Source: Candidatus Omnitrophota bacterium (GTDB lineage Bacteria > Omnitrophota > Gorgyraeia > B26-G9). From it: 64,000 bases of DNA. The notes under the pieces were generated by a model. The model had not been told where the DNA came from and ran no database searches. It worked only from the letters and a program-made list of their open reading frames with translations. The stretch is taken from NCBI GenBank assembly GCA_043806135.1, contig JAZDHG010000009.1:430-64429 (forward strand). The letters are read 5' to 3'. A program made the translations under genes and the position numbers. Positions within the stretch are counted from its first letter, which is position 1, and each line of letters opens with the position of its first letter. Below are positions 3 to 15,342 of this stretch, in pieces.

Positions 3-929
3 AGTATTATCTTCCGTCAGGTCGTGACCACGGTTAGAAGCGATGTTGAATCCGGATCAAGTTTATCAGCTGCTTTAGAGAAGCATCCTAGAATATTTAC
101 GCTGCTGTATACAAATATGGTAAAAGCGGGTGAGACCAGCGGTATGCTGGATGAGATCCTGGACCGTCTTGCCGGTTATCTTGAAAAGAGCGGAAGTTTA
201 CAGCGTAAGGTTAAATCAGCTATGGTTTACCCTGCGGTTGTTTCTCTGATGGCATTAGGTATTACATTAGTTTTGCTCTTGAAAGTTATTCCCACATTCA
301 AAGAAATTTTTTCTACCTTAGGCGGGACACTGCCTTTGCCTACACAAATACTCATAGGAATATCAGACACTTTAAGACAGTATTTTTTAATTGCAGTTAT
401 AATTCTGGGGTTGATCGCAATCGGTGTTAGAAAATTGGTACAGACGACTAAAGGCAGAGCGAAATTTGACCAGCTTAAACTTAATTTACCTGTTTTTGGT
501 TCATTGCTGCGAAAGGTTGCAGTAGCGCGGTTTTCGCGTACATTATCCACATTGATCAGGAGCGGTGTGCCTATTTTAGGTGCTTTGGAGATCGTGGGCA
601 AGACTGCAGGCAATGTTGTCATCGAAGATGCTGTTGAAAAGGCGCGTATCGGAATCCGTGAGGGAGAAAGTATTTCATCTCCTCTTGCCAAGAGTAAAGC
701 TTTTCCGCCTATGGTCACACGAATGATTTCGGTGGGTGAGGAATCAGGTGAGCTGGAGAAGATGTTGACCAAGATAGCGGATTTTTATGAGGATCAGGTA
801 GATGCTGCGGTAAGCGGTCTGACCAGTTTAATTGAGCCTTTGATCATTGCCTTTTTGGGTATTGTTGTTGGCTCAATTGTAGTGGCCATGTTCCTTCCAA
901 TATTCAAAATCACTGAGCTTATTGGATAG
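3..929 (+). CDS. pilC: Type IV pilus / T2SS platform protein PilC/GspF, C-terminal part (5' end lies outside the window)
   Basis: 301-aa ORF that is open to the window start; shows the GspF-family repeat domain with three TM helices (sequence around ...AMVYPAVVSLMALGITLVLL... and the C-terminal ...IIAFLGIVVGSIVVAMFLPIF) and sits in a pilus gene context. Confidence 0.85.
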   Translation, partial: SIIFRQVVTTVRSDVESGSSLSAALEKHPRIFTLLYTNMVKAGETSGMLDEILDRLAGYLEKSGSLQRKVKSAMVYPAVVSLMALGITLVLLLKVIPTFKEIFSTLGGTLPLPTQILIGISDTLRQYFLIAVIILGLIAIGVRKLVQTTKGRAKFDQLKLNLPVFGSLLRKVAVARFSRTLSTLIRSGVPILGALEIVGKTAGNVVIEDAVEKARIGIREGESISSPLAKSKAFPPMVTRMISVGEESGELEKMLTKIADFYEDQVDAAVSGLTSLIEPLIIAFLGIVVGSIVVAMFLPIFKITELIG

Positions 930-985: not shown

Positions 986-1014
986 ATTGACAAATGTTCG
1001 GGAGCAAGGTATAA
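986..1014 (+). promoter_or_regulatory. Consensus sigma70 promoter (TTGACA-N17-TATAAT) upstream of the pseudopilin operon
   Basis: TTGACA at 986-991, a 17-nt spacer, TATAAT at 1009-1014. Confidence 0.6.
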
Positions 1015-1136
1015 TTGTAGTAGAGGCAATATATCTAAATAATTTAGATTGCGCCCTTTTATCGAGAAAGGCAAACCCGTTGAAAAACGGGGGCCCCGTC
1101 AACGCCTAAGAAGTTTATATTACACGATAGGCTGCC

Positions 1137-1269
1137 GGGCCCGGTGAAATAAAGAAGCATGAAGCCGGGGCAAAGCCACGGGTCTAAAGGTTTTCCTGAA
1201 AAGACGGCCGGGTTACCGAAATAAAGGGAGAAAACCGATGATAGCCGAGCTACCGAAATAAAAGGTAGG
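1137..1269 (+). repeat. GC-rich intergenic block carrying three direct repeats of ACCGAAATAAAG, each lying in or beside a short hairpin
   Basis: cccggTGAAATAAAGaagcatgaagccggg (1139-1170); ttACCGAAATAAAGgg (1213-1228); ctaccGAAATAAAAggtagg (1250-1269). Local GC is far above the surrounding DNA. Confidence 0.5.
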
Positions 1270-1291
1270 TCGGTTTTTTGTCTTTAGAAGC

Positions 1292-1448
1292 CATCCTATA
1301 ACAGTGAAGTAGCGGATGTCTTGATTGCATAGATTAGAGAGGAGATTACAGTGATTATAGAGAAAGATTACTTAACTGAGAAAACAATCGCCTGCACTTA
1401 TAATGTGCATAGTGAACTTGACCCAGGATTTATACTAGGAGTGTGGAA
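1292..1448 (+). repeat. Degenerate copy of repeat family A: terminator-like hairpin, catagattag block, and a hairpin that ends in the SD
   Basis: catcctataacagtgaagtagcggatgtcttgatt... aligns with the 22585 and 57800 copies. The 3' end cccaggatttatactaggag supplies the SD for the ATG at 1449. The central ~130-nt domain of the full copies is missing here. Confidence 0.5.
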
Positions 1449-2111
1449 ATGAAAGGGAAAAAGGGATTTACCCCGTTAGAGAAAACCATTCGGCTTCGTT
1501 TAGGACAGGCCACCGATGAAGGCGGTAGTAAACACCTTACAGAAATCGCCTATGGTTTATCTTGTAAGAGGCCAAGGAGCTTAGGGGGGGCAATGCTGCT
1601 GTTTGCGCATATCGGCCGCCGCGTGAGAGAAAATTTTTCTAACAGTATAAAAAAACATAGTTCTCTAACGGGGTTTACTCTGGTAGAAATTCTTATATCA
1701 ACAGCTATAATGGCCATTGCGATCACTTCTACTTTGCAGATTTTGAACTATCTTCTGATGATGAATGAAACAAACGATGTTACTGTGCTATGTATGAATG
1801 AACTGCAGGGAAGGATAGATCAGGTTCGTAATACGCTTTATTCAGATGTAGTAGGTGTATATAACGGCAGGCAGTTTCAGATTGCTGAGTTGACTAATCG
1901 CGGTATACAGCATAGAGGGGTGTTTATTGCCAGTGAAATTGAGCCCTTATTTATAACTCGGGTAAAGGTAGTTGTTTGCTGGAGAAACAGAACAAGGATA
2001 ATCGGTGAGGATGTTAATTTTAACGGGGTGCTTGATGCAGGGGAAGATACTAACGGAAACGGAGAACTGGACTCTCCGATCATGATGGACGCGGCGGTTA
2101 TTGACAGATAA
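1449..2111 (+). CDS. Pseudopilin / minor pilin-like protein with an unusually long N-terminal region before the class III signal motif (SLTG|FTLVEIL)
   Basis: SD AGGAG sits 7 nt upstream of the ATG at 1449. The protein begins MKGKKGFTPLEK... and the canonical prepilin cleavage/methylation motif LTGFTLVEILISTAIMAIAITSTL appears about 80 residues in. The true start and processing are uncertain. Confidence 0.6.
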   Translation: MKGKKGFTPLEKTIRLRLGQATDEGGSKHLTEIAYGLSCKRPRSLGGAMLLFAHIGRRVRENFSNSIKKHSSLTGFTLVEILISTAIMAIAITSTLQILNYLLMMNETNDVTVLCMNELQGRIDQVRNTLYSDVVGVYNGRQFQIAELTNRGIQHRGVFIASEIEPLFITRVKVVVCWRNRTRIIGEDVNFNGVLDAGEDTNGNGELDSPIMMDAAVIDR

Positions 2112-2132: not shown

Positions 2133-2795
2133 ATGTTCAAGAAGAAATGCGCATATACGCTGGTGGAGCTTTTAGTGTCGCTGGCTATATTTTCAATTGT
2201 GATCGGTTCGTTGTTAACCATACTTATTTCACAGAATAATTTTTTCAGCAGAGCTTCAGCAAGAATGGACGTGGGCGTAACGGCGCGGAAAGTAATGGAT
2301 AATATGATCAAGGAACTAAGAAGTTCGAAGCTTGATGAAGTCATTATTTATAATATTCCTATGGATCAAGGAGGAGTTCTTGATTATACAGATGCTCTAA
2401 GCATTAACTTCCGGGTTCCGGTTGATTTCGATTCAGATGGCGATGTGTTTGATAATTTCGGCAGAATTGAATGGGGCACAGAGGAAGAACTTGACGGAAG
2501 CATAGAATACTTTTGGGACAGTGCTAATGACAGGGTAATTAGAAGATTGTGGGACTCGACAGGCGTTTCTAATTTCGAATCAGTGATTGCAGAAAATATT
2601 ACTGATTTTAGAATTAATGCGTTTTCCTATGCCGGCGGCGGTAACTTAGTGCCGGCTACTGTGAATCCAAACGATGCATTTGCCCCTGAAATCGTTACGA
2701 TCGCGGTTACGGCCCAAAGAGATACGGTTGGCGGAAGGGTATTAGCAGTGCCGCTGACTTATACATTGACTAATAGCGTTACATGGCGCAATTAA
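2133..2795 (+). CDS. Pseudopilin / minor pilin-like protein (atypical N-terminal motif KKKCAYTLVELLVSLAIFSIVIG)
   Basis: The N-terminus has a prepilin-like hydrophobic helix with a conserved Glu (YTLVEL). It lies in an operon with other pseudopilins. Confidence 0.55.
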   Translation: MFKKKCAYTLVELLVSLAIFSIVIGSLLTILISQNNFFSRASARMDVGVTARKVMDNMIKELRSSKLDEVIIYNIPMDQGGVLDYTDALSINFRVPVDFDSDGDVFDNFGRIEWGTEEELDGSIEYFWDSANDRVIRRLWDSTGVSNFESVIAENITDFRINAFSYAGGGNLVPATVNPNDAFAPEIVTIAVTAQRDTVGGRVLAVPLTYTLTNSVTWRN

Positions 2796-2828: not shown

Positions 2829-5561
2829 GTGAAAGTGCTCAAAAATCAAAAGGGAACGATCCTGGTTGCTACCTATATTGTATTATCCGTTATTATTGTG
2901 GTTGCGAGTGCTTTTTTCACCTTGGTAGTAACCAATAACAAAGCTGTAGTTAAAGCAAATAACGGAGCAAGAGCGCTCAGCTATGCGGAAAAGGGAATTG
3001 CCTATGTTTATTTTGAATCCTATAATCTTGGCTGGGACTGGTATACGCATGAGTGGAATGGCGCGAAAAATAAGCTTATTAAAATCCCTGCAGCCGATAG
3101 ATTAAAATCCCGCGATGACTGTGAGTTTGATGATAGTACGGGTTTTTATGTTCATAACAGCGGAGAGTTTATGGTTAAGGCTTATCCTGATCTGGTTAGA
3201 GAGGATGACACAATTGTGGTTTCCATGGGCATATGCGCAGGAGAACGGAGAGTAATCATGTACTATCTTACCCGGCGGGGTATTTATGACTTTTTTGTCT
3301 TCTCTCCTTATAATCTTGATCTGTATGGAGCTGTAGGCAGGGACCCGAAAATGAACGGGGGAGGGATTCATTCTAACGGAGACATATCTGTGAGCACGTA
3401 TATGCGGCTTGAAGATGTATCTGAGCTGAGCGCAGGTGAAAACGGGAGCATCTATTATACCAGCAGCCAGTATGCAGCCCCATATTATGCGGATGTTCTG
3501 GACGGGGTTATGGACGGCAGGGCGCCGATAACAAGACTGGATAATCTTGCTAATCTCTTTCGTAATGACATTGTTGATCCGATGCAGTCAGGACCATTCG
3601 GTTATTATAATTCAGCTAAAGCATGGGGATGGAAATCATACGCTTATTATTTTGTGAGAGATAGTATGGGCTATTACCCGACTGACGCTTTCAGCAATAC
3701 GGATGCACACTTTACCGGCAGTGATAATAGCAGATTCAATATTAATCCCGGAGCCTGGGATGGAACCAGCGGTACGGTTAATAACTCGTCAGAGCCTCTG
3801 AATGTATATAATCTTTGGATAAAGCCTTATGAGCTGGATGAAGATGGTAATAAGATTGCACATGTCTGGGCCCAGATGCCGGCAGAGCTGGACGAGGAAT
3901 GGGCCTGGGATAAATATATCGGAAGTAGGAGTTCTTCTGAGCAGCCGACCAGTTTCTATACTTACAACAACAGCGGTACTGCGGTAGATGTGGCTAATAC
4001 CTACTGGGAGATTCTTGGCCCAAATAATGTGGTAATGCTAGACCCGCCTATCGGCGGCACAGCAGAAGAATGGGCGGCTTTTAATCTGGCCCATCCTTCA
4101 GCCAAGCAGTACTGGGATATGTATAAAGCTCCGGATTATTGGCAGGCTGTACGCGGGAACAGTTATTACGGTACATATCTAAATGAAGAGGCTATGGACG
4201 GAACTTATGGTAACGACAGGGCGATCAGTGAATATATTGATGTCAAGCATACCAACTCTATGAAGCAGCCCAGCGCATGGGAAGATTTTTTAAAGGACTC
4301 AGGGCTTGATGGCTTTGTACGTGACGGCAATACCGGAGGGGAATATCTTACCCCGCCGGATTTTGAGGAAAGCTATTCCAGACTGGCTGAAAAAGACGGC
4401 GTGATCATCAATCTTGACGCAGAATATAGTGGTGGTTTTGCAAATTATGATGAATGGCAGGCGGCCATGGAAAGAAGTATTGATATTGCCGTAGATATGT
4501 TTAATGACGGGAATTCGGAAAAGGGAATTGCCAAAAAAGTGGAGTTTATTAATACCTTTACAGGAAAATGGAACGTGGTTCTCGAGTTAGATCTGGAAAA
4601 AATGCAGCAATGGAGCAAATACCCGCATAATGGGATATTGTACACTAAAGTTCCTATAAGAATAACCAATGCCTCAGAACTTGCCAGGGCAAGGGAAAAA
4701 TACGGGTTTACAGTTTTGGGTGAGGAAAATATTTATTTGCAGGGTGATTATAATACGGTAGACTGGGTCACCAGCGCGATCATTTCCCAAAAACGTGTAT
4801 TTACTCTATCTGATGATTTTAATGACCCGCAGGTTGCGCCGGCACCGCAGAATTATCCGGATTATCCCTATATTTATGTCAAGGACAATGGAACCGGAAC
4901 TTTTGCGGAAGTTCCCTATGCCTCAGGCGGCGGAAGCTGGGTTTATTCAGGTTATCTTGATAACGATGGGGTTGTTGATATAATTGATTATTATCCGCAA
5001 ATTAATGACGCAAATGAAAGAAGCCTGCTTACAATAATCGGGCAGAAGAATACTAACTACCGCGCTGTGTTTAATAAAGATGACCCTACAGGAGCAGCTA
5101 CGGATACATGGACCTGGTCAGGAACAGGGGAGACGTATACATCAGGAATGATGGCCAATAAGGTAACTAAAAACCAAACCCTTAATTGTCTTATTGCCTC
5201 CAACCGCTGGCTGGGCAGCTATCAGAGCGATAAAGGCGATATCCTTGAGAGCTGGGGAGGATTCAACCGCATTTTTAACGGATCTTATTTTGTGCTTGAA
5301 TATGAAGGGTTTACAGCGGCAAATAGTGAATTTGTTGATTATAGCACCAGTAGTTTAGGATACAATAACCGCGGCAGAAGAATTAACAGTGATTTCTTTT
5401 GGGGTGCATATTATCTGTCCTCATATTATGCTAATGAGTCCATAGAATATGACGAGAGATTTAAAACAGCGACAAGGGCTCCTTCAGATGTCTTCTTCGG
5501 CGGAGCAGAGTCTCTTTGGGCTGAGGCAACAGAAGTGTTTTTCTATAAGACTGACTTTTAA
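2829..5561 (+). CDS. Giant (910 aa) GspK/PilX-like minor pseudopilin or pilus-tip/adhesin-like protein
   Basis: GTG start with an AAGGAGG SD. The N-terminus QKGTILVATYIVLSVIIVVASAFFTLVV resembles the GspK-type leader that lacks E5. The extracellular part is large, rich in Tyr/Trp/Asp/Gly, and has no recognisable enzyme motifs. Confidence 0.45.
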   Translation: MKVLKNQKGTILVATYIVLSVIIVVASAFFTLVVTNNKAVVKANNGARALSYAEKGIAYVYFESYNLGWDWYTHEWNGAKNKLIKIPAADRLKSRDDCEFDDSTGFYVHNSGEFMVKAYPDLVREDDTIVVSMGICAGERRVIMYYLTRRGIYDFFVFSPYNLDLYGAVGRDPKMNGGGIHSNGDISVSTYMRLEDVSELSAGENGSIYYTSSQYAAPYYADVLDGVMDGRAPITRLDNLANLFRNDIVDPMQSGPFGYYNSAKAWGWKSYAYYFVRDSMGYYPTDAFSNTDAHFTGSDNSRFNINPGAWDGTSGTVNNSSEPLNVYNLWIKPYELDEDGNKIAHVWAQMPAELDEEWAWDKYIGSRSSSEQPTSFYTYNNSGTAVDVANTYWEILGPNNVVMLDPPIGGTAEEWAAFNLAHPSAKQYWDMYKAPDYWQAVRGNSYYGTYLNEEAMDGTYGNDRAISEYIDVKHTNSMKQPSAWEDFLKDSGLDGFVRDGNTGGEYLTPPDFEESYSRLAEKDGVIINLDAEYSGGFANYDEWQAAMERSIDIAVDMFNDGNSEKGIAKKVEFINTFTGKWNVVLELDLEKMQQWSKYPHNGILYTKVPIRITNASELARAREKYGFTVLGEENIYLQGDYNTVDWVTSAIISQKRVFTLSDDFNDPQVAPAPQNYPDYPYIYVKDNGTGTFAEVPYASGGGSWVYSGYLDNDGVVDIIDYYPQINDANERSLLTIIGQKNTNYRAVFNKDDPTGAATDTWTWSGTGETYTSGMMANKVTKNQTLNCLIASNRWLGSYQSDKGDILESWGGFNRIFNGSYFVLEYEGFTAANSEFVDYSTSSLGYNNRGRRINSDFFWGAYYLSSYYANESIEYDERFKTATRAPSDVFFGGAESLWAEATEVFFYKTDF

Positions 5562-5582: not shown

Positions 5583-5972
5583 ATGGACACAAAAGTAAAA
5601 ATTACGATAATCACGGTTGCAGCCTTATTGCTTATTATAATCGGTACAAGCATCCATCAGACTTTAAGGCCCCAAAAAACCGGTGTTTTAGACAAGTTTG
5701 AATCTGACACCGTCAAAAGGCAATCTCAGAGTGAACACAAAGACGTCATAAGAGCAAATGTTCCCATAAGAAACAGCAGGTATTTTTTTCCTAACAGGGA
5801 TAAGCCGAAAGTAAAGGTGGATCCAACTGCTATGGACGAAAAGGTTGAACTTGCCGGTGAACAGGATAGGGGTATGCCGGATGAATTTGCCCCTGATACA
5901 GGTCCTGAAATGAAGAACGTGGATGAATTAAAACTCTGGGACGAGCTTTCCGGTGAAAATAAGGCAAAGTAG
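5583..5972 (+). CDS. Hypothetical single-pass membrane protein
   Basis: N-terminal TM helix (IITVAALLLIIIGTSI) followed by a charged C-terminal region; no recognisable domain. Confidence 0.4.
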   Translation: MDTKVKITIITVAALLLIIIGTSIHQTLRPQKTGVLDKFESDTVKRQSQSEHKDVIRANVPIRNSRYFFPNRDKPKVKVDPTAMDEKVELAGEQDRGMPDEFAPDTGPEMKNVDELKLWDELSGENKAK

Positions 5973-6052: not shown

Positions 6053-7375
6053 TTGACTTTTTCCCGTTCCTCTTTTATAATAACTGTAATGCTCATAGGT
6101 AGAGATTTCTTATACTCAATAATTTTTTTACGTTTTGCTCTTGCGACGGTTATTCTGATAATCAATACTACTCTTTTTGGATTAGCCCATACGCAGGTTT
6201 ATTTCCTGATATCTACTATTTATATTCTCACCATTTTATATTCATTGATGGCTTTAGTAAAGTTTTCCAACACGGCTTTTTTATACCTGCAGATCATCCT
6301 TGATCTGGTAATTGAGACACTGCTTATTCACTACACCGGCGGGGTAGATTCTGTGCTGGTTTTATTGCTGCCGCTTTCGACTATTGCTGCCGGTATCGTT
6401 ATCTCCGGGCGGGCTGCGATAATGATCGCTCTCATGGGCAGCGCAATGTACGCAGGTATTGTGAGCCTTGAATTCTGGGGAATAATTCCTTTACCGGAGG
6501 GGTTTCTAAATGATCTTAATCATGAGGGGTCTTATGTCTTTGCACTGCTCTATTTCCGTGTTACCGTGTTCTGCATCATCGGTTTCTTAAGCGCTTATAT
6601 TTCAGAACAGTTAAGCAGAAAAGACAAAGTGCTTATTTCTTTGCAGGAAAAACTTCGCCGAGAAGACAGACTTTATGCTATCGGAAAACTGGCGGCCAAT
6701 ACGGCGCATGAAATACGCAACCCGCTGGCCTCAATCTCCGGCTGTGTGGAAGCGTTAAACGAGAGCCTTGTTTTAGAAGGCAATAATGAAAAACTATTCA
6801 AGCTGATCATGAAAGAGACTACGCGCTTGAACGATATAATCAACGGGCTGCTTGAATATGTTAAACCGCGCAGGCTGCAGCTTGAAAGGGTAAACATCTC
6901 AAAGATTCTGGATGAGGTCATATTCCTGATTAAAAGCAGTAAGGATTTTAAAAAAGATATCTTAATAAAAAAAGAAGGGCAAGAAAATGGTTTGAGCGTG
7001 ATCTGTGATCCCCAACAGATCAAACAGGTTTTTTTTAACCTGCTTATTAATGCGGTTGAGGCGGTAGATGAAAATGGACGTATAGTTATAACCCAGGAGG
7101 TCAATTCTGACAAGGGTCAAATTGTGATAAGTTTCAGTGATAACGGAGAGGGGATTTCCCCGGATCGCATGGAATCTCTTTTTGAGCCTTTTTCCAGCGG
7201 CAAAGATACAGGTGTGGGATTGGGGCTGGCCATAGTTCTTAGCATAATAGAGGAGCATAAAGGCAATATTAATGTCGAAACTAAAAAGGGTAAGGGGACG
7301 AAGTTTTCCGTTTGCTTACCTTTAAATGAAAAAAATACAGGTGAGAGTGATGCAGGGAAAGATACTTTTAGTTGA
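6053..7375 (+). CDS. pilS: Sensor histidine kinase, PilS-like (multi-TM N-terminus plus HisKA/HATPase)
   Basis: About six N-terminal TM helices; H-box TAHEIRNPLASI; G1/G2 boxes (DNGEGISPD, GVGLGLAIV). Immediately followed by a sigma54-activator response regulator. Confidence 0.6.
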   Translation: MTFSRSSFIITVMLIGRDFLYSIIFLRFALATVILIINTTLFGLAHTQVYFLISTIYILTILYSLMALVKFSNTAFLYLQIILDLVIETLLIHYTGGVDSVLVLLLPLSTIAAGIVISGRAAIMIALMGSAMYAGIVSLEFWGIIPLPEGFLNDLNHEGSYVFALLYFRVTVFCIIGFLSAYISEQLSRKDKVLISLQEKLRREDRLYAIGKLAANTAHEIRNPLASISGCVEALNESLVLEGNNEKLFKLIMKETTRLNDIINGLLEYVKPRRLQLERVNISKILDEVIFLIKSSKDFKKDILIKKEGQENGLSVICDPQQIKQVFFNLLINAVEAVDENGRIVITQEVNSDKGQIVISFSDNGEGISPDRMESLFEPFSSGKDTGVGLGLAIVLSIIEEHKGNINVETKKGKGTKFSVCLPLNEKNTGESDAGKDTFS

Positions 7376-8702
7376 TGATGAAAAAGACTTGTTGGAGTGG
7401 CTGAGCGTTGTATTAGAAAAGGAAGGTTATTCTGTGCGCAGTACTGTTTCCGCAGAGGAGGCGCTTAAAATCTTCCGCGCGGAACAATTTGATATGATTA
7501 TTTCTGATATTAGAATGACACCTGTGAGCGGCATTGAACTTCTCAGACAGGTTAAAAACCATAATCCGGAAATCATTGTCTTGATGATAACCGCATATGC
7601 TTCTGTGGATACGGCGATTAAGGCGCTGCGGTACGGGGCATATGATTATCTGATCAAGCCTTTTAAACTTGATGACATCAAACTTGTGATCAAAAAAGCA
7701 TTTTCCCAAAAGAGAATTTTTACGGAAGATATAAATGTACAAAAAAAGCTGAAAGAGCGGTACCGTTTTGCTAATATTATCGGTAAAAGCGCTACCATGC
7801 AGAAAATATTCGATCTGATCGATAAAGTGGCCAAGACAAATACAACTGTCCTCATAAACGGAGAAAGCGGGACTGGAAAAGAGCTGATCGCCAAGGCATT
7901 GCATTTTAACAGTTTAAAAGCCAATAAGCCGTTTGTCTCGATTGACTGCGGGGCCTTGCCTGAAGATCTGCTTGAGAGCGAGTTATTCGGGCATGTGAAG
8001 GGGTCTTTTACCGGAGCTATTGCCACTAAACAGGGGTTATTTGAAGTTGCCAGCGGCGGTACCTTGTTTTTAGATGAAATAGGTGAGACATCTCAGGCTA
8101 TGCAGGCTAAGCTGTTGCGAGCTTTGCAGGAGCGGGAGATACGGCCGGTGGGGGCAACCAAAACAATTAAGATTGATGTCAGGATCATTGCCGCTACGAA
8201 CAGTAATCTGGAAGAAGAGGTTAAACGGGAAAACTTCAGAAAGGACCTTTTTTATCGTATAAGCGTAATCAGCTTATTTTTGCCGCGTCTTTCGGCTCGA
8301 AAAGAAGATATTGAGCTTCTGGTAAGTCACTTTCTGAAAAAATACCAGATCCCGGGCAGGCCTATGAAAACAATTTCGAAGGAATGTATGGACTTGTTCC
8401 TGGAGTATAATTGGCCGGGTAATGTCCGTGAATTGGAAAATGCAATGGAGAGCGCAGTAACCTTATCAGAGAATGATAAGATTACTGAGGCTGACTTACC
8501 TGAAAGAATAAAGAAAATGGCGCAGTCAGGTGAGTCTGAGAGTGTTGATGAGGAGTCACTTAAGGGCAAGGTTGAGCAGTTTGAAAAAGAATTGATCGCA
8601 AAAACAATGAAAGAAGTGGGTGGTAATAAGAATCTTGTTGCTAAAATTCTGAAGATGACCCGGAGAAATCTTGATTATAAGATCAAAAGATATGGACTGT
8701 GA
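7350..8702 (+). CDS. pilR: Sigma54-dependent response regulator (NtrC/PilR family: REC + AAA+ sigma54-interaction + Fis HTH)
   Basis: REC domain (LLVDDE...D), Walker A GESGTGKE, GAFTGA-type motif GSFTGA, ESELFGH, C-terminal HTH. A sigma54 promoter lies just downstream, in front of the pilins. Confidence 0.7.
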   Translation: MQGKILLVDDEKDLLEWLSVVLEKEGYSVRSTVSAEEALKIFRAEQFDMIISDIRMTPVSGIELLRQVKNHNPEIIVLMITAYASVDTAIKALRYGAYDYLIKPFKLDDIKLVIKKAFSQKRIFTEDINVQKKLKERYRFANIIGKSATMQKIFDLIDKVAKTNTTVLINGESGTGKELIAKALHFNSLKANKPFVSIDCGALPEDLLESELFGHVKGSFTGAIATKQGLFEVASGGTLFLDEIGETSQAMQAKLLRALQEREIRPVGATKTIKIDVRIIAATNSNLEEEVKRENFRKDLFYRISVISLFLPRLSARKEDIELLVSHFLKKYQIPGRPMKTISKECMDLFLEYNWPGNVRELENAMESAVTLSENDKITEADLPERIKKMAQSGESESVDEESLKGKVEQFEKELIAKTMKEVGGNKNLVAKILKMTRRNLDYKIKRYGL

Positions 8703-8982
8703 GGCAAGTTAAAAGTTAAAAGTAGATTAGCTGATGGCTCATAGCTCATGGGAAAAGCAAAAGAAACCGAAAGATGAAGGATGACCGCTGCGCTGGGAGG
8801 AAGGACGCAAAAGCAGTTATGAATGACTAATTATGAGTTACGAGTGAAAAAGGTGAGCGGTAGCGTTGCCCCCTCCACACGGCAAGGCGGGCAGGCGTTT
8901 CGTCTTACGGCAACGTGCATCGTTTTAAAAACAGACTAGTTTTAGCCGTAACCATTAAACGTAACCGATACGGGCTTCGCTA

Positions 8983-9000
8983 CCGTTAGACGTTACCGAA
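8983..9000 (+). promoter_or_regulatory. Candidate upstream activator motifs (CCGTTAGA + TTACCGAA) about 270 nt upstream of the sigma54 promoter
   Basis: ctaCCGTTAGAcgTTACCGAAtgtaaata carries the same two short motifs found in the pseudopilin loci upstream regions (1213-1260 and 1470-1483). Confidence 0.3.
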
Positions 9001-9260
9001 TGTAAATATATCTTCTTGATAGTACAGTAAATTTAAAAGTAACTGCAAAAGATGAGAAGGTATTAGGCCTGCCATTTAAATCGTTTTCTTTTATAAACTC
9101 TTTATAAGGAAATAATTTTCAGAGAATGAGAAAAAAATTTCCTGCATTTAAAAGGTCAAGGAATTTATCCACAATTAGTGCTTAATGTATTAAACATGTA
9201 ACTTATTAGATCGCAGTAAATTGTGCGTATTTTTAGCTTGAATTTAATTTAAATAATATT

Positions 9261-9276: not shown

Positions 9277-9337
9277 CTTTATAACATGGGCTTTAACTAT
9301 TTGTTAACCGTTTTTGAAATTAGAAGGAGGTGTTATT

Positions 9338-9823
9338 ATGAATCGTAAAGGTTTTACTCTTGTTGAAATCATGATTGTTGTAGCGATTATCGCATTACTC
9401 GCAGCTATTGCTATACCTAACCTTTTACGTGCCAGACTTAACGCAAATGAAGCAGCAGCTCAGTCAACATTAAAAACTGTTTCTACAGCTTGTGAAAGCT
9501 ATAGAGCAGCGCAAACCCTGCCATCATATGATCCGTCGGCAACTGGAGCCAATATGACCGGCGCTACTCCGCCTTACCTGGATGTGGGGATTTTCGCGGC
9601 AGCTGGAAGACAAGGATATCTATTTGTATATTCACCACAGGCTGCTGTAGGAGGTATTATACAGCAATATGTTGCTTCTGCTGAACCGGTAACTGACAAT
9701 GTTACTGGTGCCAGAGTATTTGCTATTAATGAAACAGGTGTTTTAAGAGCAGCGGTAGTAGGAACGGCGGCTCCAACGACAACAGCAGCTTATCAAGCGG
9801 CAGCTTTTGTTGTTGTTCAGTAA
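9338..9823 (+). CDS. pilA: Type IVa major pilin PilA (MNRKG|FTLVEIMIVVAIIALLAAIAIPNLL)
   Basis: Canonical class III signal peptide and N-methyl-Phe/Glu5 motif. AGGAGG SD 8 nt upstream of the ATG at 9338. Confidence 0.9.
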   Translation: MNRKGFTLVEIMIVVAIIALLAAIAIPNLLRARLNANEAAAQSTLKTVSTACESYRAAQTLPSYDPSATGANMTGATPPYLDVGIFAAAGRQGYLFVYSPQAAVGGIIQQYVASAEPVTDNVTGARVFAINETGVLRAAVVGTAAPTTTAAYQAAAFVVVQ

Positions 9824-9856
9824 TCTGACGCCTTGTCTTTTGAGAGAATTAAAAAA

Positions 9857-9889
9857 GGAAGCGGTAAAAAATCCCGCTTCCTTTTTTTA
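9857..9889 (+). terminator. Rho-independent terminator after pilA1
   Basis: GGAAGCGG-taaaaaatc-CCGCTTCC followed by TTTTTTT. Confidence 0.7.
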
Positions 9890-9971
9890 TTGCTAAACTG
9901 AATTTTTTGATATATTATAACTATAGAAAATTTTAAGCTTTTAACCTGATCAGAAAATTGCCTGTTTGGAT

Positions 9972-10469
9972 ATGCGGAAATTTAAAAATAAGTTTGCTTA
10001 TAAATTTATAAGGGCATTCACTTTGGTTGAAATACTGATCGTGGTTACGATCATTGCTATGCTTGCGGCATTAGCTATTCCTAATCTATTGTACAGCCGA
10101 ATGCTTTCTAATGAGGCTATTGCCCAAGGGACTTTAAAAACAATTGCAAGCTCTTGTGAATCCTTTCGCACGACAGATATGACGCGTAGTTTTCCGGTAG
10201 CAATGTCTGACTTAACGACGGCTGTACCGCCTTATTTTGCCGATGCTGTTGATACCGCTACAACGGGTGCCCCTAAGAGCGGTTATTTTTTTGAATATAT
10301 ACTCATTGGTGCGCAGCAATTTGTCTGTTCGGCCAGGCCTGCTACATATCGCGCAACTGGTATCAGGACTTTTGCTGTAAACGAAACAGGGCTGCTCCGG
10401 GCAATTGATAATAACGGAGTACTCATAAATACAGAGGCATTGTATGAAGCAATGACTCCTGCTCAATAA
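9972..10469 (+). CDS. Second type IV pilin paralog (leader MRKFKNKFAYKFIRA|FTLVEILIVVTIIAMLAALAIPNLL)
   Basis: Pilin N-terminal helix nearly identical to pilA1 but with a longer leader and Ala at position -1; the C-terminal domain diverges. Confidence 0.75.
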   Translation: MRKFKNKFAYKFIRAFTLVEILIVVTIIAMLAALAIPNLLYSRMLSNEAIAQGTLKTIASSCESFRTTDMTRSFPVAMSDLTTAVPPYFADAVDTATTGAPKSGYFFEYILIGAQQFVCSARPATYRATGIRTFAVNETGLLRAIDNNGVLINTEALYEAMTPAQ

Positions 10470-11350: not shown

Positions 11351-12628
11351 ATGAATAAGCTGCTAATCTTACTGCCTTTGTTGGGAATTATTTTTTTAAT
11401 TATTTTTTGGATTATAAATCCATTGATCGGGCCAAGTTTATCCGTGATTACGATTCCTTTTATGGCGCTTACCCTGGCTGCGATCAGGGAGAGAAAAAAG
11501 GGGGAAAAGGAGTTAGATGAGGCAGTAAAAATGTTTCAGGCAGAAAAAGAGGAAATTAAAAAGGAAATACAGAGAAAAGAAAAAAATCATGTAGAGCAGT
11601 ACATGGCTTTGCAGACTTTTAGCCGGGATCTTTCTACGTCGCTGAACAAAGATCAGCTGTTGAGAGTTATCGTAAGTACTTTTTCTAAGCTGACTCGTTC
11701 GGCTTCGGGAGAAAGCCAGTGTTTTTTGTTAAGCCACGATGACATAACGCAGGAGTTCAAATACGAAGTCGGTGATAATTTTGATTCCAACACATTAAAA
11801 ACAACTAGTTTCAACGCGGAAGATGATCTTATAAAGACAATAACGAAAACCAAGAAGATACAGACCTTTATAAGTGATATTTTCGGCGGCGATTCTAATA
11901 TCAGGTATTTTTTAAAAGAAGAACGGATCACGTATCTTTCTCAACTGGGATCGCTTGCTTTAATCCCTTTGATTTTAGAAAATGAGGTATGGGGGATAAT
12001 TGTTGTTTTCTGCCATGAAGGCGCAGCAGCCAGAATCAATAACGAGGAATTGTTTTATCTGCTGCTTGTTGCGCAGGCCTCAATCGCTCTGGGAAGCGCT
12101 ATACACCGCGGACTGGCTTCGGTCGACAGGTTGACACAGCTATATAATAGAACCTTTCTGCATAAGCGTATGAACGAAGAAATTGAATTTTGCAACCGGC
12201 AGTTACTGCCCATGAGTATACTGATGATCGATATTGACCATTTTAAAGATATCAACGATACTTATGGTCACCAGGAAGGTGATATGGTTTTAAAAAAAAT
12301 CGCTCAGATCGTCAGCAATTGCGTACGCTTGACCGACCTTTGCGCTAGATACGGCGGGGAAGAGTTTGTAGTTGTTTTACCAGGTATCGCGGAAAACGAG
12401 CAGGATGGGTTCTCTATAGCAGAACGGCTGAGAGCTTCTGTAGAAAAAGCGGATTTTGTCATCCTGGGTCAAAAACATCTGAAGATTACGATAAGTGTCG
12501 GTGTAACTGTACGCAAATACCCCGAAGATAAAGAAACCGATATGGAAAAACTTATAATCCGTGCGGACAGATTGCTGTATAAAGCTAAAAATGAGGGAAG
12601 AAATTGCGTGCGGTATGACGCACAATAA
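11351..12628 (+). CDS. Diguanylate cyclase (TM + sensory domain + GGDEF)
   Basis: GGEEF active-site motif (RYGGEEFVVVLPG), DxFK(D)INDTYGH motif, N-terminal TM helices. Confidence 0.8.
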   Translation: MNKLLILLPLLGIIFLIIFWIINPLIGPSLSVITIPFMALTLAAIRERKKGEKELDEAVKMFQAEKEEIKKEIQRKEKNHVEQYMALQTFSRDLSTSLNKDQLLRVIVSTFSKLTRSASGESQCFLLSHDDITQEFKYEVGDNFDSNTLKTTSFNAEDDLIKTITKTKKIQTFISDIFGGDSNIRYFLKEERITYLSQLGSLALIPLILENEVWGIIVVFCHEGAAARINNEELFYLLLVAQASIALGSAIHRGLASVDRLTQLYNRTFLHKRMNEEIEFCNRQLLPMSILMIDIDHFKDINDTYGHQEGDMVLKKIAQIVSNCVRLTDLCARYGGEEFVVVLPGIAENEQDGFSIAERLRASVEKADFVILGQKHLKITISVGVTVRKYPEDKETDMEKLIIRADRLLYKAKNEGRNCVRYDAQ

Positions 12629-12639
12629 ATAGGTGGAAA

Positions 12640-14322
12640 ATGTTTCAAAAACAAAAAAACTCTATAGGGCTTGAAATTGGTGATGGATTGGTAAAAGCAA
12701 TGCATATTGTTTCAACCCATAAAGAAAATAAGCTTATTGGTTTTGACATGGTGAGTGTGAACTTCCGCGAAGGCCGCCAGGGTATCGTCAATGCCATGAA
12801 AGATGTTCTCGGCAAATTGGGCTTAAATAAAAATGACAAAATTAATATCTCTGTATCCGGAGAATCTGTTATGGTGCGTGATATACACTGGCCGCAGATG
12901 ACTGATGATGAGATCAGGAAGGCCTTGAAGTTTGAAGTTGAGCGCCAGGTTCATTATAAGACTGAGGAAATTGTTTTTGATTATTATTCTGTTTTGGATA
13001 AGTCTATAGCTGAGACAAAAACAAGGGTTATCCTTGTCGCGGCTAAAAAAGATCTTATTGAAAACTATTCCAGCCTGATAGAGTCTGCAGGTTATAAGTG
13101 CGGATTCGTGGAAGTGGATACCTTCAGCTTGCTGAACTGCTTCTATGTTAACGGTCCTGATGTTCCGCCTGAAAAAACAATAGCGATTATCAATATCGGG
13201 CTTGAAGTTACGAATATTGATATTATAAAAGGAAAGATCGTTGGACTTACTAAAGATGCTTTTGTGGCTTGGAGCAATCTTGTGGATGTTTTGCCGGAAG
13301 GCGTAGAGTTTGATTTTGATAATGTCACTGCGCTAAAAGGATTAATGGGCACGGACGATGTCTATGAGCTTAGTTTGTTTATTATGAATGCGCTTTCCAA
13401 TCAGGTGCGCAGAACAATAGAGTTTTACGAAAGTCAGGGACGCGATACTGTAGAAGAAATATATTTAAGCGGAAAACTGGCGATGTATAAAAACCTGGAT
13501 AAGTATCTGCAGAATATCTTGGGCTTAAAAGTAACTGTTTGGAATCCGCTAGCAAATGTGAGTTATAATGCAAAACTGTTTGAAGGAAAGCATCTAAAGG
13601 AAAAGGCCCCGATGCTTGCTTTGTGCAGCGGTTTGGCCTGCAGAAGGGCTTTTGATATTGATCTTACGACTTCCAGAAAAGCGGAGCAAAGGAACAAGTT
13701 TGTGAGTTTTCTTGGACAGCATAAGGCACTTGTATATACATTTGTAGTTGTAGCATGCTTTCTTGCCGGCTTATGGGTAATTCTTTTGAGCCAGATCAAG
13801 GTGAAGGAAAACCGCAAGCAGGCGTTACTGTTTGAGAATCAAAAATTAAACGAGGTCCTCAAAGATATAGAAAACCTGAAGCAGGGAAGATTGATTTTAG
13901 GCGAGCATGTGAATATTGCGAAGACTTTGCTTTCGCATAGATTGCTCTGGAGTAAAAAACTTTTTCAAATAAGTAAAAGTGTATCCAATGAGATGTGGCT
14001 TAAGGAAATATTAATTAAGGAATTAAGCCCATCAAGTGCACCTCGTGAAAGTACTGCTCAGATCGGTACGGCCGTGGAAACCTCCGGCGCGGCAGAAGCT
14101 GTGCCTGAAAGGCCTCAGCTGGTTTTGATTATAAATGGTGTTGTTTATTCAGAATCGAGCAAAAACCTGCTGGGTGAGGTTAATCAGTTTATCAGCAATT
14201 TGAACAATGACCAGGGATTTAAAGAGGATTTTATTAAGATAGAGCTAAAACGTTCTTTTCGTGATACAGTCGGCAGCACGCCGATAATGAATTTCAGGAT
14301 TGAATGTACTTTAAATAGGTAA
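12640..14322 (+). CDS. pilM: Type IV pilus assembly PilM-PilN fusion protein
   Basis: Actin-like ATPase PilM fold over the first ~340 aa (SIGLEIGDGLVKAM...), then a TM helix (ALVYTFVVVACFLAGLWVILL) and a coiled-coil/periplasmic PilN-like region. 560 aa total against ~350 for a stand-alone PilM. Confidence 0.7.
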   Translation: MFQKQKNSIGLEIGDGLVKAMHIVSTHKENKLIGFDMVSVNFREGRQGIVNAMKDVLGKLGLNKNDKINISVSGESVMVRDIHWPQMTDDEIRKALKFEVERQVHYKTEEIVFDYYSVLDKSIAETKTRVILVAAKKDLIENYSSLIESAGYKCGFVEVDTFSLLNCFYVNGPDVPPEKTIAIINIGLEVTNIDIIKGKIVGLTKDAFVAWSNLVDVLPEGVEFDFDNVTALKGLMGTDDVYELSLFIMNALSNQVRRTIEFYESQGRDTVEEIYLSGKLAMYKNLDKYLQNILGLKVTVWNPLANVSYNAKLFEGKHLKEKAPMLALCSGLACRRAFDIDLTTSRKAEQRNKFVSFLGQHKALVYTFVVVACFLAGLWVILLSQIKVKENRKQALLFENQKLNEVLKDIENLKQGRLILGEHVNIAKTLLSHRLLWSKKLFQISKSVSNEMWLKEILIKELSPSSAPRESTAQIGTAVETSGAAEAVPERPQLVLIINGVVYSESSKNLLGEVNQFISNLNNDQGFKEDFIKIELKRSFRDTVGSTPIMNFRIECTLNR

Positions 14323-14326
14323 TCTC

Positions 14327-14896
14327 ATGAAGAAAAAACTAAGTCAAAAAGATCAAATATTTATTTCCGGAAGTATCATAATCGGGATAATAGTGTTGCT
14401 CTGTTTTATGTTCATTTTTCAGCCGATGCTGAAAAAGATCATGGATTACACTAAAGAGGAAGAAAACATAAAGGCGCAATTGAGAAAGGCAAGTAATTTA
14501 GCAGCGGATAAGGAAAAGTTAGCTGCTGAAGTTAAGAATATTTCAAAAATGATATTTTTTTATGAAGAAAGACTGCCGAAGAAGACAGATATTCCGCAAG
14601 TCCTGGATGAACTGGTAAAGATTGGAGAAAAATCTGAAGTAACATTTATTTCTATCGAACCGCAGGAGATTAAAAGAGTACATGTCGGACAGTCGGGTCA
14701 AAAAAACTATATAAAGATCCCGATAGAGCTAATATTAAAAGCAGGCTATCACGAGTTTGCCTTATTTGTCAACGGAGTGGAAAATTTCCCCCAGTTCATG
14801 CGGGTGGATAATGTAAAAATAAATGGTGATGTCAGCAATACTAGAAAGCATGATATCAGTCTTACGGTCACTGCTTTTGCTTTAGAGGACAATTAA
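14327..14896 (+). CDS. pilO: Type IV pilus assembly protein PilO-like
   Basis: N-terminal TM helix, a coiled coil, then a periplasmic domain; positioned between pilMN and pilP/pilQ. Confidence 0.6.
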   Translation: MKKKLSQKDQIFISGSIIIGIIVLLCFMFIFQPMLKKIMDYTKEEENIKAQLRKASNLAADKEKLAAEVKNISKMIFFYEERLPKKTDIPQVLDELVKIGEKSEVTFISIEPQEIKRVHVGQSGQKNYIKIPIELILKAGYHEFALFVNGVENFPQFMRVDNVKINGDVSNTRKHDISLTVTAFALEDN

Positions 14897-14898
14897 AA

Positions 14899-15342
14899 AT
14901 GCGACGATTTGCAGGAAGAATTACAATTAATGCAATACTGGTTTTAATAATCAGCGTGTTTTGCACTATGCTGCTGGTGTTTGATTCGCAGGCCGAAGAA
15001 TTTATTGAGCATAAGGATAAATTCATTTACACGCGAGATGGCCGCAATGATCCTTTTCTGCCTTTGCTTAGCGCTAAAGGGCTGGTGCAGGAAACGGGTC
15101 CAAGCACAAAAGAAGATATGATGCAATATGTCAGTAAAATAAATGTAAGCGGGATCCTGTGGGATGAAACGATGCCTTTCGTAGTGATAAATAATAAAAT
15201 GCGAAAAGAGGGCGACGTCGTAGAGAACCTGACAATCAAAAAAATAAACGTTAACGGTATAATTTTAGGATATCTTGACCTGACACATGAAATTATATTG
15301 ATAAAAAAGAAGAAAATGAACGATCAAGGAGGGGTTCAATGA
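14899..15342 (+). CDS. pilP: PilP-like small periplasmic or lipoprotein pilus assembly protein
   Basis: Signal/TM N-terminus, ~147 aa, immediately upstream of the secretin with overlapping stop/start. Confidence 0.45.
   Translation: MRRFAGRITINAILVLIISVFCTMLLVFDSQAEEFIEHKDKFIYTRDGRNDPFLPLLSAKGLVQETGPSTKEDMMQYVSKINVSGILWDETMPFVVINNKMRKEGDVVENLTIKKINVNGIILGYLDLTHEIILIKKKKMNDQGGVQ

Follow-up and report, generated by a model that had tools for sequence, protein, structure and literature searches.

A probable PilX_N-type minor pilin of 910 residues with a large predicted ectodomain in a type IVa pilus cluster of Candidatus Omnitrophota

Gene organization of the minor-pilin operon

The window (the whole stretch of 64,000 nucleotides that was analyzed) comes from a MAG of Candidatus Omnitrophota and contains a complete type IVa pilus (T4aP) cluster, inside which a minor-pilin operon is located. 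All features described here lie on the forward strand. The cluster begins with the gene of a PilC/GspF platform protein (24..929), whose 5′ end is cut by the start of the window (T2SSF, 6.9e-53; PilC models of NCBIfam, about 1e-108). Downstream of the operon are the genes of a PilS-like histidine kinase and a PilR-like sigma-54 response regulator (6053..8702, Pfam), two prepilin genes as candidates for the major pilins (9314..10469, N_methyl matches), a gene of a GGDEF diguanylate cyclase (11351..12628; GGDEF, 8.4e-48) that is syntenic in related loci, and the genes of PilM (560 aa), PilO, and the PilQ secretin (12640..16973; PilM_2, 1.3e-32; PilO, 1.2e-17; Secretin, 8.7e-48). Neither a PilY1 gene nor a prepilin peptidase gene was found among the scanned ORFs of the window, and competence genes were not seen in the cluster.

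The operon leader contains a putative sigma-70-like promoter (987..1015), assigned only by its match to the consensus (TTGACA-17-TATAAT, 12/12). It is followed by an aptamer of the c-di-GMP-I riboswitch class (1061..1221) with an insertion of 78 nt in the first hairpin. RF01051 matches 1146..1220 with 36.3 bits (GA 35), and RF03167 matches the full 1061..1221 with an E value of 2.7e-07 but with 36.8 bits, under its GA of 59. A tandem riboswitch was rejected in favor of the single aptamer with the insertion. The cassette is likewise preceded by an aptamer of the same class in 8/8 related loci, showing conservation of the riboswitch. A terminator-like hairpin (CCGAGCTACC / GGTAGGTCGG, with a 9-nt loop and then T6) at 1245..1279, found by reading the sequence and in the MFE fold, is a putative expression platform. 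A simple hairpin scan passed over this element for its loop of more than 8 nt and one stem mismatch.

Two small prepilin genes precede the gene under study. The first encodes minor pilin 1 (mp1, about 1593..2111), a canonical prepilin (SSLTG/FTLVE) with Glu5; its start codon is uncertain, as the ORF is open from 1443. The second encodes minor pilin 2 (mp2, 2133..2795), a prepilin of 220 aa (KKKCA/YTLVE), also with Glu5, and ends 33 nt before the next gene. Both were assigned by synteny and N_methyl matches (3.3e-07 for mp2), with weak matches to GspJ/GspI/ComGE for mp1 and to GspI/PilV for mp2. The matches of both proteins to pilins in the PDB profile search run through α1 only, and an assignment to GspI, GspJ, PilV, or PilW is unsupported past position and size.

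The gene at 2829..5561 encodes 910 aa (hereafter the giant protein), starts with GTG, and has an AAGGAGG ribosome-binding site upstream. An NCBI entry (hypothetical protein V1739_00820, Candidatus Omnitrophota) is 100% identical to the product, 22 homologs share 33–75% identity with it, mostly over the full length, and an exhaustive profile search gave at least 350 representative clusters (50% identity) at E ≤ 1e-3. A chance ORF is thereby excluded, and the gene is real and conserved. The sequence-only reading had described a 910-aa ORF within a pseudopilin operon, and the ORF, the ribosome-binding site, the homologs, and the prepilin neighbors all agree with this description. The last gene of the operon (5583..5972) begins 21 nt downstream and encodes 129 aa with an N-terminal transmembrane helix. 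This protein has no match in Pfam or NCBIfam, though its homologs (30–37% identity) are found directly after the giant gene in six related loci.

In the window, as in most loci with enough flank, the neighbors of the trio of mp1, mp2, and the giant gene are pilC, pilS/R, pilins, GGDEF, and pilM/O/Q. The co-occurrence with pilMNOPQ, which the sequence-only reading had proposed to check, is thus observed both here and in related genomes. In every locus the two small pilins are canonical, Glu5-bearing prepilins; they are encoded upstream of the giant gene in nearly all loci with an upstream flank and downstream in three. The giant genes of distant members (24–30% identity) are still accompanied by both small partners, whether in T4aP clusters, in a single Tad-like cluster, or where the trio stands alone. 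In all the contexts examined, a type IV filament or the two prepilin partners are kept, and homologs outside pilus contexts, which would have spoken against the reading, did not appear.

The Verru_Chthon cassette of Verrucomicrobia and Chthoniobacter (TIGR02596/02598/02599/02600, among them proteins A, B, and D) also combines small prepilin-like proteins with a large protein, likewise in the PVC superphylum. A weak match of mp2 to Verru_Chthon protein C (TIGR02599), over the N-terminal 69 positions only, has an E value of 9e-10, but membership was rejected because its 38 bits fall short of the cutoff of 256. NCBIfam scans gave no match of protein D (TIGR02600) in the giant protein or in 50 family members.

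N-terminal module and predicted ectodomain

The N-terminal part of the giant protein (2829..3281) is a pilin-like module composed of a leader (aa 1–9), an α1 helix (aa 8–66), and a β-sheet (aa 74–151), judging from DSSP of the AF2 models, the PilX_N homology at aa 4–65, and the PDB profile matches. The leader (MKVLKNQKG/TILVA) is short, ends with Gly, and is followed by a hydrophobic helix of about 20 aa. The N-terminus quoted in the sequence-only reading (KGTILVATYIVLSVIIVVASAFF) is correct, and the residue at +5 after Gly9 is Ala14, not Glu. The position of this residue should be noted: Glu at +5 is found in none of 122 N-termini of the family (0/122). The combination of a leader ending with Gly, a hydrophobic helix, and the lack of Glu5 is, by sequence, the GspK/PilX pattern.

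PilX_N (PF14341) is the commonest Pfam match on the N-terminal segments of the family (16/67, best 8e-6; the next family, 3/67). A search of 5.8 billion sequences with an N-terminal profile gave one match, an ordinary PilX_N protein of 187 aa (E 5.7e-7), and hhalign aligned the family N-terminus with this protein at 97.4% probability (E 1.5e-11). The alignment extends beyond the transmembrane segment, taking in the nonhydrophobic leader and an A.YAAE.G motif. These profile comparisons show that the N-terminus is homologous to PilX_N, over a span of only about 62 residues (aa 4–65) that includes the hydrophobic helix. The link is at the family and profile level only, as the window protein alone gives no Pfam PilX_N match at E ≤ 1, and neither N_methyl nor TIGR02532 matches it in Pfam and NCBIfam. 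In the PDB profile search, the N-terminus matched the pilins Geobacter PilA-N, MshA, and PilA, aligned at the leader, the Gly, and α1N.

The giant protein thus shares with PilX (of the FimU-PilVWXY1 operon type) a homologous leader, the Gly, the hydrophobic α1, the A.YAAE.G motif, and the lack of Glu5, and its gene likewise closes the row of minor-pilin genes in a T4aP cluster. It differs in its length (910 aa vs 187 aa for the only ordinary PilX_N protein retrieved), in the lack of a nearby PilY1 gene, and in being accompanied by two minor pilins, not three or four. In the pseudopili of type II secretion, GspK caps the tip complex that it forms with GspI and GspJ (Korotkov and Hol 2008, as summarized in PMC8179133 and PMC6561018). 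The giant protein resembles GspK in being the largest of a set of three pilins, in lacking the Glu5 that both partners possess, in having an extra domain added to a predicted pilin scaffold, and in its predicted prime-and-cap role. However, the extra domain of GspK is small, α-helical, and inserted in the β-sheet, whereas that of the giant protein is predicted to be about 750 aa and β-rich, and GspK belongs to the type II secretion system, whereas the giant gene lies with pilM/O/Q and pilS/R of a T4aP. The GspK/T2SSK models of Pfam and NCBIfam match neither the giant protein nor 50 diverse members. The claim of a GspK-type N-terminus without Glu5 in the sequence-only reading thus stands for the pattern, now with a relation to PilX_N, but not as membership in the GspK family of Pfam.

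The mature protein has a mass of about 101.6 kDa and a pI of 4.5. It had been described as rich in Tyr, Trp, and Asp, and the measured contents bear this out (Y 7.8%, W 2.9%, and D 7.7%, with N 7.4%). Pfam and NCBIfam scans of the giant protein, the 22 close homologs, and 50 diverse members gave only weak PilX_N matches, one Dockerin, and one FG-GAP loop, and no NCBIfam model matches the giant protein or the 50 members. Ligand-binding, vWA, and lectin domains and a PilY1 propeller were not found in the giant protein by Pfam scans and Foldseek, in line with the earlier remark that catalytic, von Willebrand, and PilY1 signatures are unrecognizable. For a Ca site like that of an EF-hand, the only candidate was the FG-GAP-like DxDGxxD loop at aa 678–719 (Pfam, E 0.021), which is weak; it is absent in 6 of 21 aligned homologs and in a distant member and is therefore not a feature of the family.

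An AF2 model built from 80 diverse sequences (pLDDT 92.7, pTM 0.86) superseded a first model of moderate quality from the 22 close homologs (pLDDT 74.5). A long α1 helix is followed by a putatively pilin-like β-sheet in the model; an unrelated fold behind an ordinary signal anchor, an outcome that the sequence-only reading had considered, did not appear. Outside the pilin-like module, about 750 aa are mostly β with some helices (AF2/DSSP). This remainder is predicted to be one rigid body and has no recognizable structural relative: Foldseek searches of the models against the PDB and BFVD gave no match at E ≤ 1e-3, no GspK structure was among the best 50 matches of either PDB search, and the PDB sequence-profile search with the full-length alignment gave no match. 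The ideas of a phage tail-fiber, β-propeller, vWA, or GspK fold for the ectodomain were dropped on the Foldseek result, and the structural check proposed earlier, a GspK lower domain or a β-propeller, turned up neither in the AF2 models. The modeling thus shows a confidently predicted fold that has no known neighbor in the PDB or BFVD.

Conserved and variable parts of the family

The giant protein belongs to a large unannotated family in uncultivated Omnitrophota. The GTDB scan, made with profile A1, covers close relatives only; a word-indexed search of annotated databases with a diverse profile (A2) gave nothing beyond the first 23 matches. The members are acidic (median pI 4.9, 93% below 6) and rich in aromatic residues.

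In the sequences, a conserved scaffold (about aa 1–230 and 470–690) alternates with two variable regions. Variable region 1 (approximately aa 240–470, 3546..4238) is covered in only 17–27% of 118 distant full-length members and has indel hot spots; the identity between paralogs is lowest at aa 241–320. The second scaffold segment (about aa 470–690, 4237..4898), with the motifs EENxYLxGDYN and SDDFNDPQ and many invariant residues, is present in 77–92% of the same members, and the entropy is lowest at aa 631–690. Variable region 2 (about aa 690–910, 4897..5558), delimited by alignments, the AF2 model, and paralogs, includes a conserved C-terminal strand and helix (about aa 871–906).

The cassette of the trio is duplicated in at least three genomes, and the paralogs, 49% identical, diverge most in the variable segments. 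The size of the family, the duplication of the cassette, and the c-di-GMP riboswitch were absent from the sequence-only reading.

Proposed role at the pilus tip

We consider it rather probable that the giant protein is a cap minor pilin of the type IVa pilus whose ectodomain of unrecognized fold is displayed at the tip, probably as an adhesin. As the equivalent of GspK/PilX in the Omnitrophota T4aP, it would be anchored in the inner membrane by its PilX_N-type N-terminal helix and would form a priming complex with mp1 and mp2. The major pilin would polymerize on this complex, which therefore would end at the distal tip of the pilus; the cap would need no Glu5, because no subunit lies above it. 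The ectodomain of about 750 residues would pass through the PilQ secretin and be displayed at the tip, where its likeliest job would be contact with or adhesion to a surface or a host or prey cell, replacing the missing PilY1. The conserved scaffold with variable regions, the diverging duplicated cassettes, and the acidic, aromatic-rich composition make up a signature of the adhesin type; the place in the tip, the export through the secretin, the adhesin function, and the direction of the c-di-GMP control are inferred. The riboswitch in the leader would gate the expression of the trio. Since a conserved c-di-GMP riboswitch precedes the tip-complex operon and not the major pilin gene, second-messenger control is suggested to be possible at the priming step of pilus assembly.

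The concept resembles that of modular pilins (PilB/PilC of Streptococcus sanguinis, CofB, and TcpB; PMC8179133), in which a pilin carrier presents a bulky effector module at the tip and which are predicted to be tip-exposed (PMC8179133). Those proteins have a class III signal (IPR012902) with Glu5 and a recognizable grafted domain (vWA or lectin), whereas here a carrier of the PilX_N type that lacks Glu5 is combined with a module for which no known domain or fold gave a match. PilY1/PilC proteins are alike in size (about 1000 aa) and in their presumed tip location and adhesion role, and the giant gene, following those of the minor pilins, takes the position usual for PilY1. However, PilY1 is defined by a C-terminal β-propeller (IPR008707, PMC8179133) and is not a pilin, whereas a pilin-type N-terminus is part of the giant protein itself; the Pfam scans yielded no model of the PilY1/PilC family, and the fold matches included no propeller.

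A first alternative is that the protein serves assembly only, nucleating the pilus with mp1 and mp2, while its large domain binds no ligand and acts not as a surface adhesin but as a stopper in the periplasm or docked at the secretin, e.g., by blocking complete retraction or gating the secretin. The PilX/GspK position without Glu5, the strong conservation of the internal scaffold segments, and the lack of a recognizable binding domain speak for this role, and a rigid body of about 100 kDa might be near the upper limit for passage through the PilQ channel. However, two long regions show high variability and have other sequence in their place in distant members, and the duplicated cassettes, with paralogs diverging in these regions, are more in keeping with diversifying surface recognition than with a mechanical role that is conserved. 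In other T4aP systems, moreover, proteins of the size of PilY1 are believed to be displayed at the tip (PMC8179133). We regard the assembly-only role as unlikely, though it is the best placed of the alternatives.

Somewhat less probable still is an extracytoplasmic or periplasmic protein that is anchored in the membrane by a PilX_N-like signal anchor and co-regulated with pilins but never polymerized. The single sequence falls under the Pfam thresholds of PilX_N and N_methyl, and hydrophobic helices, to whose region the homology is limited, can produce spurious profile matches. Contrarily, the profile match includes the nonhydrophobic leader and the A.YAAE.G motif, the family-wide lack of Glu5 is a specific trait of GspK/PilX, and the tight three-gene synteny, with two genuine prepilins, persists at identities of 24–75% and in different filament systems.

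The top Foldseek match of both models is ComZ (6QVI) of the competence pilus of Thermus thermophilus, a GspK-like pilin with an inserted domain of 380 aa for which no place other than the tip is argued to be suitable (PMC6561018). ComZ, too, is a very large minor pilin of the GspK-like type, its extra domain itself being very large, and has an adjacent small minor pilin as its partner; a similar tip receptor for DNA in natural transformation can be imagined. The match is not significant (E 0.004–0.025, probability 0.08–0.47, TM ≤ 0.21), and the PDB profile searches found no sequence similarity. The extra domain of ComZ is a triangular β-solenoid inserted before the last strand, its chains in 6QVI have about 500–520 residues, fewer than the giant protein, and it is not a predicted PilD substrate. 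DNA binding by a protein so acidic, in a family as acidic as a whole, is unlikely from the sequence, and no competence genes accompany the cluster; such a receptor is very improbable. An enzyme delivered at the tip, e.g., for degradation of glycans or cell walls of prey, with E632/E633, D666, and E807 as the active site, is equally improbable: these residues are invariant, the most conserved segment among close homologs contains invariant Glu and Asp residues, and Omnitrophota are proposed to be predators or parasites whose giant proteins have pilus genes and glycoside hydrolases on their flanks (PMC10066038; bioRxiv 10.64898/2026.06.07.730766), but no enzyme family or fold matches, and E632/E633 fall under 90% conservation in wider alignments.

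If the giant protein is the cap pilin proposed above, the range of modular pilins would extend to a cap pilin of about 100 kDa with a predicted fold that has no neighbor in the PDB or BFVD. Modular pilins that go undetected, with modules for which databases hold no signature, have been predicted to be numerous (Raynaud et al. 2021, PMC8179133), and the unrecognized ectodomain supports this prediction. Few traits are tied to the lifestyle of Omnitrophota, which are probably host-dependent; type IV and Tad pili belong to these traits, and the T4aP of Omnitrophota is proposed to mediate attachment to a host or prey (PMC10066038). The family would be a concrete candidate for the contact with the partner, being large, typical of the phylum, positioned at the tip, and furnished with variable regions and duplicated alternative cassettes.

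Omnitrophota are widespread, uncultivated, and ultra-small, and are thought to be predators, parasites, or symbionts. As a tentative extension, which we hold with clearly less confidence than the cap pilin itself, the family may be a recognition device of Omnitrophota for host or prey, a PilY1-independent tip adhesin whose cap pilin directly bears about 750 residues of a new fold. The variable regions would then set the target specificity, and alternative cassettes in one genome would provide alternative tips. The riboswitch would time the tip complex and hence the pilus, and the trio would be able to move between T4aP and Tad-like machines.

The 910-residue protein and its pilus cluster

The ORF for the giant protein lies at 2829..5561 (+), as the sequence-only reading had placed it, with a GTG start and a ribosome-binding site (AAGGAGG) a few bases upstream. 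Comparison with databases indicates that the ORF is a genuine gene, since they contain an identical entry (a hypothetical protein of a Candidatus Omnitrophota MAG) as well as 22 homologs that align at 33–75% identity, most of them over the full length. The N-terminus is MKVLKNQKG-TILVATYIVLSVIIVVASAFF, with Ala at position +5 after Gly9, so the reported absence of Glu5 (the fifth residue after the leader cleavage site) was confirmed. The abundance of Tyr, Trp, and Asp also held (7.8%, 2.9%, and 7.7%, respectively); Asn accounts for 7.4%, and only three Cys residues are present. The mature protein has a mass of about 101.6 kDa and a pI of 4.5.

The gene is the third in a closely packed four-gene operon with intergenic gaps of 21–33 nt. 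It follows the genes of two small minor pilins, mp1 (about 1593..2111, prepilin motif G/FTLVE, the slash marking cleavage) and mp2 (2133..2795, A/YTLVE), and precedes that of a 129-residue protein (5583..5972, +). The operon sits within a complete type IVa pilus cluster comprising pilC (24..929), pilS-like and pilR-like genes (6053..8702), two prepilin genes (9314..10469), a GGDEF cyclase gene (11351..12628), and pilM, pilO, and the secretin gene pilQ (12640..16973). The suggested check for co-occurrence with pilMNOPQ was positive, and the three-gene unit (mp1, mp2, and the giant gene) is found near pilM in related loci as well. No PilY1 or prepilin peptidase gene was found among the window ORFs scanned. 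Outside the pilus cluster, the window encodes housekeeping functions.

Several features of the neighboring genes should be noted. The mp1 ORF is open from GTG 1443, about 75 codons ahead of the prepilin motif (1443..1592). Translation probably begins at or close to ATG 1593, since the leaders of mp1 homologs span 6–30 residues, and database annotations of mp1 may be over-extended. Conserved Asp/Asn/Gly-rich loops occur in mp1 (GEDxNxNGxLDxGEDxNGNGExDSP, residues 138–162, 2004..2078) and mp2 (VPVDxDxDGD, residues 95–110, 2415..2462), and both look like calcium-binding loops. GspK, GspG, and PilY1 contain known calcium sites. The 129-residue protein has one N-terminal transmembrane helix and an acidic, Pro-rich tail; it gave no family match, and its gene directly follows that of the giant protein in six close loci (30–37% identity). 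In the 560-residue PilM homolog (12640..14322), the PilM_2 match is limited to residues 46–336, and the window shows no separate pilN ORF ahead of pilO. The homolog may be a PilM-PilN fusion, and a 558–560-residue form is also found in two related loci (L001 and L008). A short ORF between the riboswitch terminator and mp1 (1353..1445, +; VIIEKDYLTEKTIACTYNVHSELDPGFILGVWK, followed by a stop codon) resembles the N-terminus of GxxExxY/PDDEXK_3 proteins and is probably a gene remnant; locus L002 has a 61-residue PDDEXK_3 ORF. Far from the operon, a 637-residue protein (33769..35682, +) carries an inverse-autotransporter β-domain (5.8e-15) followed by right-handed β-helix repeats (Beta_helix, DUF1565, and NosD), making it a candidate second surface adhesin in the window.

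Pilin-like N-terminus and ectodomain

Among 122 N-termini of the family (the homologs of the giant protein), a short basic leader ending in Gly is followed by about 20 hydrophobic residues, and none has Glu at +5. When the N-terminal 110 residues of 67 diverse members were compared with Pfam, PilX_N (PF14341) was found in 16 (best E 8e-6), and every other Pfam family in three members at most. The sequence of the giant protein alone reached no PilX_N match, and therefore this assignment is made at the family level. Among PDB entries, the N-terminal profile aligns with full-length type IV pilins (Geobacter PilA-N, E 0.002–0.004; MshA; PilA) at the leader, the Gly, and α1N. A search of 5.8 billion proteins with the profile gave one match outside the family, a 187-residue protein with a precomputed PF14341 assignment (E 5.7e-7). 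Profile–profile alignment with this protein (97.4% probability, E 1.5e-11) covers 62 columns spanning the leader, the helix, and an A.YAAE.G motif. These comparisons indicate that the giant protein is related to PilX_N proteins via its first 65 or so residues. The N-terminus had been called GspK-type; the lack of Glu5 and the homology with PilX_N bear out this part, whereas the protein proved not to be a member of the GspK family when tested. It belongs to neither the PilY1 nor the Verru_Chthon protein D family by the same kind of test.

The AF2 model built from 22 close homologs was moderate (pLDDT 74.5), and that from 80 diverse sequences was confident (pLDDT 92.7, pTM 0.86, 718 residues at pLDDT 90 or above). 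The predicted structure consists of a helix (residues 8–66), a β-sheet (74–151), a β-rich region to about residue 410, a helical sub-region (412–560), further β structure (568–706), a long helix (727–748), and a β-rich C-terminus ending in a 12-residue strand (889–900) and a short helix. The β-propeller or GspK fold for which a search had been proposed was not recovered, as Foldseek gave no structural neighbor in the PDB or BFVD at E ≤ 1e-3; "no known fold" here means no neighbor in these two databases at Foldseek sensitivity. Three ComZ chains (6QVI) head both PDB searches (E 0.004–0.63, probability ≤ 0.47, TM ≤ 0.21), and we take the likeness of the model to ComZ as a lead only.

Conservation, duplication, and predicted riboswitch control

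When 1.84 billion representatives were searched exhaustively with a profile, 350 family clusters reached E ≤ 1e-3 and 104 of these E ≤ 1e-30; the members are mostly of 700–1100 residues. They are acidic (median pI 4.9, 93% below 6) and rich in aromatic residues (median Y+W 9.4%). We found no published description of the family in a literature search. When the close-homolog profile was mapped onto 118 distant full-length members, positions 1–210 and 481–690 were present in 83–99% and 77–92% of them, respectively, and positions 241–450 and 691–926 in 17–27% and 22–38%. This uneven coverage indicates a scaffold conserved across the family and two regions that vary. A pair of paralogs encoded in the same genome (P0012 and P0017) shares 49% identity; the identity is lowest (30–37%) at residues 241–320, 521–560, and 801–880, and highest (67–81%) at residues 41–120, 561–600, 641–680, and 881–910.

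A scan of GTDB species representatives gave 17 loci, all from MAGs whose labels read Omnitrophota, PVC group, or "uncultured Planctomycetia," except for one labelled uncultured bacterium. As judged by tblastn with the window proteins, the trio is kept in most of the loci that include upstream flank. Its usual place is between pilC and pilS/pilR-pilins-GGDEF-pilM, with another arrangement in L014, L017, and L019. In all loci, both small pilins have Gly/Ala at −1 and Glu at +5. Distant members (24–30% identity) are likewise encoded downstream of two small proteins, in type IVa pilus clusters, one Tad-like cluster, or a stand-alone trio, and the mp1 loop motif persists in the Tad-like and stand-alone loci too. 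The Tad-like cluster (L020 1-11225, contig CAZWJT010000001.1) encodes RcpC, an RcpA-type secretin that carries a fused TonB_C domain, and a 723-residue ParA/TadZ-T2SSE (TadZ-TadA) fusion ATPase; at its end lie a 1074-residue family member (P0071) and two small partners with classical GxTxxE, not Flp-type, prepilin signals.

At least three genomes carry the trio in duplicate, at 6212-9034 and 10001-12820 in L001, 3495-6218 and 8010-10823 in L005, and 8001-10256 and 10429-13305 in L022. The second copy is sometimes in the order giant-mp1-mp2; in L022, an unannotated 958-residue ORF belongs to the family (E 1e-144) and is followed by two prepilins. The duplicated cassettes may be alternative pilus tips and recall Myxococcus, which has multiple minor-pilin/PilY1 clusters.

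The operon leader contains, in order, a sigma-70-like promoter of perfect consensus (987..1015, +), a c-di-GMP-I class aptamer with a 78-nt insertion (1061..1221, +), and a terminator-like hairpin with T6 (1245..1279, +) that was read from the sequence and also forms in the MFE fold. Besides the window, Rfam places an aptamer of this class directly upstream of the cassette in all eight related loci: L001 (4694-4851 and 9822-9896, one before each cassette), L004 (6598-6762), L005 (2088-2231), L007 (6697-6782), L008 (1233-1319), L011 (6320-6476), L012 (6549-6634), and L013 (6616-6779). The matches are to RF01051 or to its GGC variant RF03167, with scores of up to 76 bits. In three loci the variant is matched at 67–76 bits, which raises the question of whether c-di-GMP is the ligand in all lineages. 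The GGDEF gene is syntenic in the pilus cluster, and MshEN-domain ATPases are present in related loci; further c-di-GMP parts in related pilus clusters reinforce c-di-GMP control of these pili. A 1355-residue GGDEF-AAA_16-HEAT protein, stand-alone 153-residue MshEN-domain proteins, and a PilZ protein adjoining pilM are encoded at L022 (1264-5764) and the locus of P0049, another family member.

A probable cap pilin with a tip-displayed ectodomain

In the established model of type IV filaments, a minor-pilin complex primes assembly and remains at the tip (PMC8179133, PMC6561018). GspK, which lacks Glu5, caps GspI-GspJ-GspK (Korotkov and Hol 2008, summarised in the two papers just cited). We consider it fairly probable that the giant protein is a cap pilin displaying its ectodomain, the roughly 750 residues beyond the pilin-like module, at the tip. 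The established filament model agrees with the absence of Glu5 in the giant protein and its presence in both partners, with the invariant three-gene unit, and with the homology of the N-terminus to PilX_N. The three proteins would form a priming complex that stays at the pilus tip, a position for which bulk alone argues, as it did for ComZ (PMC6561018). The cluster has no PilY1 gene, which makes the ectodomain the obvious candidate to provide contact in place of PilY1. The variable regions and duplicated cassettes would fit recognition of diverse targets. For the giant protein, we infer adhesion, export through PilQ, and processing by PilD.

That the protein serves assembly only, as a primer or plug, is unlikely, and a membrane-anchored protein that is never polymerised is somewhat less likely still. 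A ComZ-like DNA receptor is disfavored by the acidity of the protein and seems very improbable; equally little credence is given to a tip-delivered enzyme, for which no match was found in support.

As a cap pilin, the giant protein would work like GspK, PilX, and ComZ and fall within the broad notion of modular pilins. The carrier principle is already known, and the system as such is of a familiar kind. Its new features are the size of the protein, an ectodomain of unrecognised fold, control of a tip-complex operon by a riboswitch, and a large phylum-typical family without annotation, encoded in a portable, duplicated trio. Type IVa pili of Omnitrophota have been proposed to serve attachment to hosts or prey (PMC10066038). 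The family could offer a concrete handle on the host interaction of Omnitrophota.
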